This document shows, piece after piece, positions 48,865 to 51,800 of a DNA stretch of 64,000 nt. A program made the position numbers. Origin of the DNA: a plasmid; assembly GCF_988243305.1 (NCBI RefSeq), contig NZ_OZ547139.1, one strand, 5' to 3'. Numbering within the stretch: the stretch's first letter is position 1; each line of letters opens with the position of its first letter.

Positions 48865-51800
48865 CTACGCAAAGGCCAGGCCTCAGCATTTTATTATGGT
48901 GATCCCCTGGGCGAAATGCGCCTGGTAAGCAGAGTTTTTGAAATGTAAGGCCTTTGAATAAGACAAAAGGCTGCCTCATCGCTAACTTTGCAACAGTGCC
49001 GAAAAAACGGCTCCGCTCGCTGAAGGATCTGGATAAATCTGCATTGGCGCTCGCCAGCGCATGTTCGTACCTGCTGAAAGAAGAAACACCGGACGAATCG
49101 ATTCGTGCTGAGGTGTTCAGCTACATCCCAAGGCAAAAGCTGGCTGAAATCATCACGCTTGTCCGTGAAATTGCCCGGCCCTCAGACGATAATTTTCATG
49201 AAGAAATGGTGGAGCAGTACGGGCGCGTTCGTCGTTTCCTGCCCCATCTGCTGAATACCGTTAAATTTTCATCCGCACCTGCCGGGGTTACCACTCTGAA
49301 TGCCTGTGACTACCTCAGCCGGGAGTTCAGCTCACGGCGGCAGTTTTTTGACGACGCACCAACGGAAATTATCAGTCGGTCATGGAAACGGCTGGTGATT
49401 AACAAGGAAAAACATATCACCCGCAGGGGATACACGCTCTGCTTTCTCAGTAAACTGCAGGATAGTCTGAGGCGGAGGGATGTCTACGTTACCGGCAGTA
49501 ACCGGTGGGGAGATCCTCGTGCAAGATTACTACAGGGTGCTGACTGGCAGGCAAACCGGATTAAGGTTTATCGTTCTTTGGGGCACCCGACAGACCCGCA
49601 GGAAGCAATAAAATCTCTGGGTCATCAGCTTGATAGTCGTTACAGACAGGTTGCTGCACGTCTTTGCGAAAATGAGGCTGTCGAACTCGATGTTTCTGGC
49701 CCGAAGCCCCGGTTGACAATTTCTCCCCTCGCCAGTCTTGATGAGCCGGACAGTCTGAAACGACTGAGCAAAATGATCAGTGATCTACTCCCTCCGGTGG
49801 ATTTAACGGAGTTGCTGCTCGAAATTAACGCCCATACCGGATTTGCTGATGAGTTTTTCCATGCTAGTGAAGCCAGTGCCAGAGTTGATGATCTGCCCGT
49901 CAGCATCAGCGCCGTGCTGATGGCTGAAGCCTGCAATATCGGTCTGGAACCACTGATCAGATCAAATGTTCCTGCACTGACCCGACACCGGCTGAACTGG
50001 ACAAAAGCGAACTATCTGCGGGCTGAAACTATCACCAGCGCTAATGCCAGACTGGTTGATTTTCAGGCAACGCTGCCACTGGCACAGATATGGGGTGGAG
50101 GAGAAGTGGCATCTGCAGATGGAATGCGCTTTGTTACGCCAGTCAGAACAATCAATGCCGGACCGAACCGCAAATACTTTGGTAATAACAGAGGGATCAC
50201 CTGGTACAACTTTGTGTCCGATCAGTATTCCGGCTTTCATGGCATCGTTATACCGGGGACGCTGAGGGACTCTATCTTTGTGCTGGAAGGTCTTCTGGAA
50301 CAGGAGACCGGGCTGAATCCAACCGAAATTATGACCGATACAGCAGGTGCCAGCGAACTTGTCTTTGGCCTTTTCTGGCTGCTGGGATACCAGTTTTCTC
50401 CACGCCTGGCTGATGCCGGTGCTTCGGTTTTCTGGCGAATGGACCATGATGCCGACTATGGCGTGCTGAATGATATTGCCAGAGGGCAATCAGATCCCCG
50501 AAAAATAGTCCTTCAGTGGGACGAAATGATCCGGACCGCTGGCTCCCTGAAGCTGGGCAAAGTACAGGTTTCAGTGCTGGTCCGTTCATTGCTGAAAAGT
50601 GAACGTCCTTCCGGACTGACTCAGGCAATCATTGAAGTGGGGCGCATCAACAAAACGCTGTATCTGCTTAATTATATTGATGATGAAGATTACCGCCGGC
50701 GCATTCTGACCCAGCTTAATCGGGGAGAAAGTCGCCATGCCGTTGCCAGAGCCATCTGTCACGGTCAAAAAGGTGAGATAAGAAAACGATATACCGACGG
50801 TCAGGAAGATCAACTGGGCACACTGGGGCTGGTCACTAACGCCGTCGTGTTATGGAACACTATTTATATGCAGGCAGCCCTGGATCATCTCCGGGCGCAG
50901 GGTGAAACACTGAATGATGAAGATATCGCACGCCTCTCCCCGCTTTGCCACGGACATATCAATATGCTCGGCCATTATTCCTTCACGCTGGCAGAACTGG
51001 TGACCAAAGGACATCTGAGACCATTAAAAGAGGCGTCAGAGGCAGAAAACGTTGCTTAACGTGAGTTTTCGTTCCACTGAGCGTCAGACCCCTTATTTGA
51101 GTAAATGCGATTTCTGCCAGAAGGGCGGCACAAAAAAACCCGACTGGTGAGATCGGGTTTTTATGTTTTGCCCCGGATGGAGGCGGGAACACCTAAACAA
51201 TTGACGGTTAAATATTACGCCATGAGTGCAGTAAATGCAAACCACCCGGAATAGGGTATACTGCGCGGGTCAATCTGTTGACGTTCTTCTCCAGCCCCCG
51301 CTTACGCGGCGTGAACGGATTAAAGCCCTGGTTGAAAAACAGGTGGTGCTGTTTCAATGCCCTGGCTGGAGTGGGAACATCTAAACAATTGACGTGAGGT
51401 AGCCGCTGTGACAGGCAATGTAAGGGCGATCAGCGGTGTTCCTGCTCTGTATGGAGCAAACGGATGATTAACTTGTTAATCGTCGTTCTGCGGGCTGTTG
51501 TTGCAGTGTCTAACGCTGTGATAGCGGTCCTGGAGCTGATCCGGCAGTATTTTGACTGACCGGAAACGTAACTAAAGGCGGGGGGACCACTCCCCGCCTT
51601 TTAACACAAACCTTCAGTTTACAGTCTGTTTAGCGGCCGACACCCACTTATACAGACACCCAACCGACAGGTTCAGATCAGCAGCAATTGCCTTAACTTT
51701 TTCCCCCGTTACTTTTCTGGCCTCCATCCTTTTCACGGCTTCAGCCCTGAGCGCTTCTGGTACCACTTTCACTACTGGCGAGTGCTTCCAGATCTGATGT

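Follow-up and report, generated by a model that had tools for sequence, protein, structure and literature searches.

Direct repeats beside a hydrophobic micro-ORF on an IncM plasmid very probably mark a copy of the DqlB-agrB type I toxin-antitoxin module

The locus considered here occupies positions 51093-51613 of a 64,000-nucleotide stretch of plasmid DNA (NCBI RefSeq assembly GCF_988243305.1, contig NZ_OZ547139.1), the whole of which is referred to below as the window, and we hold with high confidence that its features are those of an IncM copy of the DqlB-agrB type I toxin-antitoxin (TA) module, a post-segregational-killing (addiction) system. In the addiction module hok-sok of plasmid R1, a small membrane toxin is combined with an unstable antisense RNA, and the toxin mRNA is kept inert by 5'-3' folding until it is processed. 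Its antisense RNA, Sok, is of the cis-encoded, overlapping kind and takes effect via mok, a translationally coupled leader open reading frame (ORF). The type I TA system tisB-istR-1 of E. coli is built differently: its antisense RNA is divergently encoded, acts in trans and pairs in the 5' untranslated region (UTR) away from the ribosome-binding site (RBS), the inert primary transcript is activated by 5' processing, and tisB is controlled by LexA. The dinQ-agrB locus of the E. coli K-12 chromosome, which also includes agrA, was reportedly studied by Weel-Sneve and colleagues in 2013. The dql family, which comprises dqlA and dqlB and is found on both the chromosomes and the plasmids of Enterobacteriaceae, was defined by Kristiansen et al. 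(RNA 2016), who also worked out the dinQ leader switch and the action of agrB, the switch model being established experimentally on chromosomal E. coli dinQ (PMC5066626).

The closest described system is found on pOXA-48 (IncL), in which Baffert et al. (Nat Commun 2025) described an unannotated DqlB-agrB locus between repA and trbC. Arabinose-induced expression of DqlB was toxic and produced ghost cells, and agrB supplied in trans protected the cells; a 4-nt agrB mutant failed to protect, and a compensatory mutation in the 5' UTR restored protection. Furthermore, agrB alone rescued cells from killing after CRISPR curing of pOXA-48, zero transposon (Tn) insertions were recovered in agrB, and dqlB was carried by 99.3% of IncL and 95.5% of IncM plasmids (PMC12365149). 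Independent support came from CRISPRi silencing of agrB, which was strongly deleterious (PMC12361523). An IncX3 homologue was also toxic, was neutralised by its agrB and stabilised a test plasmid (PMC12317039).

Conservation in related plasmids had been proposed as a check when the locus was read from sequence alone, and it was borne out. Positions 51093-51613 are 100% identical in the IncM plasmid pCTX-M3 (NC_004464.2) and likewise in dozens of other IncM plasmids, and the wider window is a pCTX-M3-type backbone carrying resistance insertions. The number of plasmid records matching 51093-51613 was 1125 at the megablast level, rising to 4906 with a related locus at the more sensitive blastn level; in the distant relatives found at the latter level, the alignment begins at about +40 of the toxin mRNA and runs as far as the terminator. 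In pCTX-M3 and most of the 1125 records, RefSeq labels the ORF at 51464-51559 as dqlB, "DinQ-like type I toxin DqlB". The module is already known, being annotated in RefSeq and experimentally characterised in pOXA-48, and its detection here is correct but ordinary.

The pOXA-48-like locus in our comparison (L002) encodes the same DqlB peptide (WP_004206884.1), has the same repeat pair and differs from the window by 9 substitutions in 514 aligned nt. Four of these lie inside the module (at 51162, 51247, 51319 and, synonymously, 51496) and none is in the pairing segments. Because the peptide and the pairing segments are identical, the experimental conclusions drawn for pOXA-48 transfer directly; for that near-identical locus it was demonstrated that DqlB is toxic, that agrB neutralises it by base pairing and that cells are killed when the plasmid is lost, and this would apply to the IncM copy by orthology. 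The two modules are the same: agrB is divergent, pairing involves a region of about 35 nt, and the trbC transfer region lies beside the module. They differ in their surroundings: the window backbone is IncM (pCTX-M3 type) and not IncL, the end of a Tn3-family transposon lies about 39 bp past agrB, and a MucR-family gene stands between dqlB and trbC. The possibility of a type I TA system, raised in the sequence-only reading, is accordingly supported by the DqlB family match described below, the RefSeq dqlB annotation and the validated pOXA-48 locus (PMC12365149, PMC12361523).

The toxin gene of the window is the following.

51464-51559, + strand: dqlB coding sequence, a 31-aa hydrophobic toxin with one predicted helix (NCBIfam NF041473; RefSeq WP_004206884.1; codon pattern)

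A 31-aa hydrophobic micro-ORF had been noticed at exactly this position. It comprises 31 codons, from the ATG at 51464 to the stop at 51559, and the encoded peptide MINLLIVVLRAVVAVSNAVIAVLELIRQYFD has a grand average of hydropathy (GRAVY) of +1.6 overall and +2.1 for residues 1-24. Against NCBIfam NF041473 the DqlB peptide scored 73.5 bits (cut-off 35) and aligned over residues 1-31 of 31, which places it in the family; against the NCBIfam DinQ model the match was weak (19.6 bits, cut-off 30), and the DqlB and DinQ models were the only NCBIfam matches at E <= 1. Among 10 lineages, the variable columns of dqlB were distributed over codon positions 1/2/3 as 11/2/21, a pattern that fits a translated peptide. 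At 31 aa, the product would conform to the short (~27-31 aa) hydrophobic one-helix peptides under purifying selection that make up the family. No second DqlB-like ORF was found in a search across the window.

The sequence-only reading also described a 6-codon leader ORF. Such an ORF (ATG GAG CAA ACG GAT GAT TAA) is physically present at 51451-51471, where it overlaps both the dqlB start and the Shine-Dalgarno (SD) sequence GGAG, but it is not conserved: its ATG is replaced by CTG in three lineages, and in four others a 1-nt length difference brings it in frame with dqlB. The leader-peptide interpretation was therefore rejected and the ORF is considered incidental. In this respect the locus departs from hok-sok, which it resembles as a plasmid addiction system made of a small membrane toxin and an antisense RNA; in the window the antisense gene is separate and divergent, the upstream 6-codon ORF is unconserved, and the locus is not of the hok/sok type.

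The direct repeats are the feature that links this ORF to its antitoxin. The motif GGGAACA(C/T)CTAAACAATTGACG occurs in exactly two copies in the 64-kb window, with zero further copies at up to 3 mismatches and 0 in 100 dinucleotide shuffles. Copy 1, GGGAACACCTAAACAATTGACG, lies at 51185-51206 and copy 2, GGGAACATCTAAACAATTGACG, at 51373-51394; they are identical at 21 of 22 positions and are separated by 188 bp from start to start, close to the spacing of about 185 bp first given for two copies just past the Tn3 inverted repeat. The chance expectation for pairs matching at >=21 of 22 positions in 521 bp is about 5e-7. If one indel is allowed, the repeat grows to ~36-45 nt (51164-51206 versus 51350-51394), and the single C/T difference within the 22-mer becomes a G·U pair in an RNA duplex. 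An antisense RNA search, suggested at the outset as a further check, located an agrB-like gene around copy 1, with a predicted 36-pair duplex with the dqlB leader. The corresponding features are as follows.

51131-51211, - strand: agrB small RNA (sRNA) gene, ~75-80 nt (Rfam AgrB match, positional homology, 11-locus alignment)
51169-51206, - strand: agrB pairing segment, the extended repeat copy 1 (RNAduplex)
51358-51394, + strand: agrB target, the extended repeat copy 2, whose 5' half is element 2 of the dqlB leader (duplex, repeat comparison, cognate energies)
51212-51240, - strand: predicted agrB promoter, read from the sequence, with -35 TTGCAT at 51240-51235, a 17-nt spacer and -10 TAATAT at 51217-51212
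51132-51157, - strand: agrB intrinsic terminator, with stem CCCGA/TCGGG at 51139-51143 and 51153-51157 and a U-tract from 51138 to 51132

The direct repeat is the DNA footprint of a trans-antisense pair, in which agrB contains copy 1 and targets copy 2 in the 5' UTR of dqlB. Since the sRNA gene is at a separate site and is read off the opposite strand, complementarity to its target shows in the DNA as a direct repeat; had the antisense gene not been separate from its target, no such repeat would be visible. What the sequence-only reading overlooked is that antitoxin and target recognise each other through this very repeat. Through its 5' 47 nt, agrB forms 36 pairs with mRNA positions 51358-51394 at -63.5 kcal/mol (RNAduplex), about 10 SD beyond 1000 shuffles (-32.6 ± 3.1, minimum -46.0). 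This duplex was recalculated with the 5' 47 nt only, because a calculation with the whole sRNA was uninformative, the shuffled controls also being very low. The target sits 59-95 nt upstream of the dqlB SD, comparable with G88-A119 of dinQ at 65-96 nt upstream (PMC5066626). The window has the divergent upstream sRNA gene with ~30-36 nt of complementarity to the toxin 5' UTR that is characteristic of such TA systems. The arrangement is like that of tisB-istR-1 in its divergent trans-acting antisense RNA, its pairing away from the RBS and its presumably processing-activated transcript, yet DqlB has no sequence relationship to that system, as the NCBIfam matches listed above indicate.

The pairing was further examined in 12 related loci from IncL, IncN, IncF/R, IncX1, IncX3, IncX4 and IncI/K plasmids and plasmid dinQ. 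All 12 share the arrangement: a segment of 33-45 nt that precedes the toxin ATG by ~70-110 nt has a second copy another 186-246 bp upstream. Across the 10 other plasmid lineages, the repeat sequences are specific to each lineage and match within each locus, as in GGGAACGACCAAACAATTGAC of IncN, GAAGAACTGTCTATAACTGAC of IncI/K and GAAACTCTCTACAACTGACAA of IncX3. In all IncX, IncI/K, IncF and dinQ loci, the upstream copy coincides with minus-strand Rfam AgrB matches of 38.5-63.4 bits (9 of 10 above the gathering score of 40), and with respect to the toxin gene these matches are placed and oriented like the window agrB. The mean agrB-target duplex energy was -61.0 kcal/mol for cognate and -36.4 kcal/mol for non-cognate pairs, and the window agrB, which reaches its -63.5 kcal/mol with its own target, gave only -25 to -37 with targets beyond the IncL/M/N clade. 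Transitions between the two copies were compatible with G·U pairing of a minus-strand agrB in 25 cases versus 5 in the opposite direction (binomial p = 3e-4, for events that are not phylogenetically independent).

These data also bear on the idea that the 22-bp repeats bind a protein, be it as iterons or as another control element recognised by, for example, replication or partition proteins; an iteron-like control region had been one of the initial suggestions. Direct repeats of exact length within a non-coding gap of a plasmid backbone would suit such an element, as would the location of the pOXA-48 locus between repA and trbC. However, only two copies exist in 64 kb even with 3 mismatches allowed, and they stand 188 bp apart, not at a replication origin and forming no array; copy 1 belongs to an sRNA gene that has a promoter and a terminator of its own, and copy 2 to a toxin mRNA leader. 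The repeat sequence is completely different in other lineages, yet both copies match each other in every locus, co-varying as an RNA-RNA pairing site, and the differences between copies favour the G·U-compatible changes expected of RNA pairing and not of a shared protein site. Moreover, the compensatory mutagenesis in pOXA-48 indicates that base pairing is what counts (PMC12365149). We give protein-binding repeats a negligible probability. The iteron class, which calls for an array of >=3 direct repeats of similar spacing in or close to an origin or a rep gene, bound by the Rep protein, was rejected, as there are two copies and each is inside a transcribed RNA element.

Two observations were made on individual loci of the comparison set. 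In an IncI/K plasmid of Shigella dysenteriae (L012, NZ_CP026778.1), the dqlB-agrB module is present twice in tandem at a distance of about 684 bp, and both copies encode the same toxin peptide (dqlB at 744-839 and from 1428; agrB matches at 350-437 and 1079-1166). On an IncX1/X3 plasmid (L005), a ColE1-type RNAI (RF00106, 66.3 bits) lies at 1109-1209, ~240 bp downstream of dqlB, which suggests a small-replicon insertion or cointegrate.

The agrB gene of the window can be followed through the alignment of agrB regions from 11 loci, which shows conservation of the promoter, of the first part of the pairing segment and of the terminator. TTGC and TA..AT occur at the same spacing in the 11 loci. 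The 5' end is predicted between 51211 and 51204 and the 3' end at about 51132. The terminator is an inverted repeat in the DNA and a terminator hairpin is predicted in the agrB fold; the 3' hairpin reads AAAAACCCGA-tctcaccag-TCGGGTTTTTTT (51162 to 51132, minus strand), and AAAAACCCGAYCTCACCAGTCGGGTTTTTTT is nearly invariant across lineages. The Rfam AgrB model (RF02891) matches 51131-51211 on the minus strand over its full length (1-84 of 84) with 22.1 bits and E=0.41, and the match contains repeat copy 1. Other Rfam matches in the window, to OrzO-P, Thr_leader and others, are at chance level and fall on the terminator hairpin.

The leader of the dqlB mRNA was compared with that of dinQ in an 11-locus alignment that ran from -235 to +150 relative to the ATG and took in plasmid dinQ, and the following features were assigned by this alignment and by minimum free energy (MFE) folding. 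SL denotes a stem-loop.

51257-51262, + strand: predicted dqlB promoter -10, TATACT (GTATA(A/C)T is invariant in 11/11 loci including plasmid dinQ)
51235-51240, + strand: dqlB -35, ATGCAA, weak, on the same 6 bp as the agrB -35
51269-51606, + strand: predicted full-length dqlB mRNA, ~338 nt with a 195-nt 5' UTR (conserved -10 and terminator)
51284-51296, + strand: element 1, a 5' 'lock' that pairs with element 2 (MFE fold of full-length RNA)
51331-51358, + strand: stem-loop 2 (SL2) of the 5' UTR (MFE fold)
51403-51436, + strand: stem-loop 4 (SL4) of the 5' UTR, CCGCUG...CAGCGG (alignment)
51435-51449, + strand: element 3, the partner either of element 2 (leaving the SD open) or of the SD itself (closing it) (duplex, MFE of 5'-truncated RNA)
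51443-51458, + strand: Shine-Dalgarno hairpin, elements 3:4 (fold with the agrB target blocked in silico)
51463-51484, + strand: hairpin holding the AUG start codon (inverted repeat; 9 bp, -7.9 kcal/mol)
51574-51601, both strands: bidirectional intrinsic terminator (perfect 10-bp inverted repeat, conserved in all loci)

In the plasmid dinQ locus (L013), the G seven nt past the -10 reproduces the published numbering, in which element 1 is U16-C28, and the +1 of the window is accordingly predicted at G51269. With this numbering the dqlB SD GGAG (51453-51456) is at +185, and the same procedure puts the SD of L013 at +188; the SD of chromosomal dinQ was published as G184-G187 (PMC5066626). The locus resembles E. 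coli K-12 dinQ-agrB in its small single-helix toxin, its ~190-nt 5' UTR with the SD at about +185 (PMC5066626), its homologous SL2, SL4 and SD hairpin, and a divergent sRNA that pairs ~60-95 nt upstream of the SD. The dinQ-like -10, SL2, SL4, SD hairpin and elements 1-4 expected of a DqlB-family 5' UTR are all found in the alignment. It differs in that the peptide falls into the DqlB subgroup (73.5 vs 19.6 bits), that there is one agr gene and not two (dinQ has agrA and agrB), that stem-loop 1 of agrB is shortened, and that a plasmid context, an addiction role and the lack of a LexA box set it apart.

Several of these structures are maintained by different sequences in different lineages. Helices were judged per sequence because MAFFT set the 5' arm of the SD hairpin one column off register between lineages. 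In alignments read by eye, the arms of SL2 change and stay complementary (UUGAA/UUCAA, CCAAAAC/GUUUUGG, CCGGAC/GUCUGG), and those of SL4 co-change by lineage (TCGCTG/CAGCGA, CCGTTG/CAACGG, CCGTGG/CCACGG, CTGTTG/CAACAG, CCGATA/TATCGG). Equivalents of the SD hairpin with different arm sequences are present in 11/11 loci, as is the AUG hairpin, which in dinQ is maintained by different arm sequences. The element 1 core CUCCAGCC (51289-51296) is complementary to the element 2 core GGCUGGAG (51364-51371), and the extended 1:2 duplex comprises 21 bp at -25.7 kcal/mol. The 2:3 duplex, 51367-51381 with 51435-51449, has 14 bp and -21.7 kcal/mol, and an inverted repeat in the DNA reflects the same complementarity. 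As in dinQ, the mutually exclusive 1:2, 2:3 and 3:4 pairings are formable, and this holds in every locus aligned. MFE folds of the window RNA gave 1:2 pairing with the SD paired for the full-length form, 2:3 pairing for the 5'-truncated form and the SD hairpin when the agrB target was blocked. The terminator at 51574-51601 was reported on the minus strand by the scan, and TTTT follows the stem on the plus strand; it would terminate both dqlB (+) and the convergent MucR-family gene (-).

These elements can be combined into a working model, for which we infer the transcript ends, the processing step, the structural switch and the relative RNA half-lives. dqlB would be transcribed on the plus strand from the conserved -10 into an mRNA of ~338 nt, the 195-nt leader of which would be structured and the 31-aa hydrophobic helical product of which would damage the inner membrane. 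A back-to-back promoter would drive divergent transcription of agrB and yield an sRNA of ~80 nt, whose 5' part (51206-51169) is complementary to the leader at 51358-51394. By analogy with dinQ, the full-length dqlB mRNA would be translationally inert, with element 1 paired to element 2 and hairpin 3:4 holding the SD; processing at the 5' end would take off element 1, whereupon element 2 would pair with element 3 and the SD would open; and agrB bound to element 2 would free element 3, so that the SD hairpin would re-close and RNase III cleavage would probably be triggered. Upon plasmid loss, the presumably labile agrB would decay, DqlB would be made and the plasmid-free cell would die.

Several points weigh against this interpretation, in addition to the phylogenetic dependence of the wobble-direction counts given above. 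First, the Rfam AgrB score of the window, 22.1 bits, is below the gathering threshold of 40. In the alignment of agrB regions from 11 loci, the agrBs of IncL/M/N are without ~17 nt of stem-loop 1 (window 51169-51184), a segment that is present in the agrBs of IncX, IncI/K and dinQ, and this shortening in the IncL/M/N clade accounts for the low score. As the match is below threshold, the agrB call relies on positional homology with the agrB matches of other lineages, and we treat the window agrB as a divergent homologue and not as a member of RF02891 as defined by the model. Second, a generic sigma-70 scan of 50900-52200 reported no promoter, and the -35 hexamers of agrB and dqlB are both weak (3/6); the two promoters were therefore deduced from conservation instead. 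Third, when the 'processed' form is folded by MFE, several homologues, among them the plasmid dinQ homologue L013, retain a closed SD hairpin. Finally, the energies of element 2:3 pairing barely separate cognate (-19.9) from non-cognate (-17.1) pairs across lineages, and since they do not discriminate, no claim of covariation is made for 2:3. The in-silico support for the 1:2/2:3/3:4 switch is mixed and is consistent with the dinQ model without amounting to proof. The sequence anatomy, the family membership, the complementarity and the co-variation of agrB-target pairing were obtained directly in the present analysis.

The alternative that the locus acts like chromosomal dinQ, as a LexA/SOS-induced stress toxin that modulates membrane functions and not as an addiction module, is raised by the dinQ homology of the peptide (its weak NCBIfam DinQ match) and of the leader architecture, and the sequence-only reading had compared the peptide with SOS-type toxins such as TisB and DinQ. 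In addition, a LexA site was predicted for dqlB of the IncI-type plasmid pTF2 (PMC12211044). The DinQ-like part of that comparison stands, as the peptide is a DinQ-like small hydrophobic toxin by its NF041473 match, but the SOS part does not: a search of 51093-51470 for a CTG-N10-CAG LexA box found none. Read as its reverse complement, the pTF2 'LexA box' is the SL2 hairpin, which lies within the transcript, and the spacing of the half-sites in IncL/M/N and in the dinQ locus L013 is 9 nt and not 10. The pOXA-48 orthologue, moreover, kills upon plasmid loss and agrB alone rescues. We regard SOS induction as quite improbable here, and the IncM dqlB copy is not considered SOS-controlled on the evidence of its upstream region. 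Assignment to dinQ proper, which is SOS-regulated, was rejected, because 51093-51470 contains no LexA operator and the DinQ score of 19.6 bits is below 30.

The pTF2 element itself, ACCTGTTTGTTCAGCCAGGA (PMC12211044), was compared with window positions 51327-51343 and with the SL2 regions of L005, L006 and L008, and it corresponds to the palindromic SL2 of the dqlB leader. It is no promoter operator and probably arose as a false positive of a pattern search.

On the agrB side, the module borders a 38-bp inverted repeat (51055-51092) that we take to be Tn3-type, with 51093 presumably the first backbone base. This repeat closes a Tn3-family transposase ORF that ends at 51059 (48954-51059) and is N-terminally truncated (701 aa listed). 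The terminal inverted repeat stops ~39 bp beyond the agrB 3' end, and this junction is 100% identical in many IncM plasmids. On the dqlB side, a MucR-family gene (51614-52123, minus strand) is convergent with dqlB and differs from that of pCTX-M3 by one base at 52076 (T in the window, A in pCTX-M3, plus strand), which converts Cys16 (TGT), the second Cys of a CxxC zinc-finger motif, into a TGA stop; the MucR-family gene is probably inactivated in the window plasmid. In the IncL locus L002 (1083-1090), trbC ends directly past the dqlB terminator, and the window has the MucR-family gene in that place (51606-52170), so that its insertion between dqlB and trbC is specific to the IncM backbone.

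Given these neighbours, we considered whether the module is a decayed or silent remnant in the window plasmid, disturbed for example by the adjacent Tn3-family insertion, whose inverted repeat ends (51092) only ~39 bp from the agrB 3' end; the nonsense mutation in the neighbouring MucR-family gene would fit such decay. The transposon end is outside the agrB terminator, however, and no part of the module is damaged. The functional pOXA-48 module has the same peptide and the same two pairing segments, the four substitutions lie outside the pairing segments with the ORF carrying one synonymous change, the junction is unchanged at 100% identity in dozens of circulating IncM plasmids, and loss of agrB alone would kill the host. 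A remnant is thus very improbable, and a functional DqlB-agrB addiction module remains our reading of the locus.

The IncM dqlB-agrB locus leaves the current understanding of these systems unchanged, and its descriptive points appear only mildly new: the shortened IncL/M/N agrB missed by the Rfam threshold, and one -35 hexamer apparently common to both divergent promoters. At the gathering threshold, Rfam-based annotation overlooks the antitoxin of the clinically important IncL/M plasmids. We tentatively raise the idea, which we consider unlikely at present, that the IncL/M/N agrB is a structurally reduced variant, with its promoter -35 on the same 6 bp as the toxin -35, that constitutes a variant mechanism within the known system and not a new system. 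If this were true, a reduced agrB with altered stability or altered RNase III/Hfq dependence, or transcription coupled through the -35, could give IncL/M/N plasmids killing kinetics distinct from those of dinQ-type loci. More generally, when a direct repeat lies beside a hydrophobic micro-ORF, it can be the trace left in the DNA by a type I TA pair of the trans-antisense kind.

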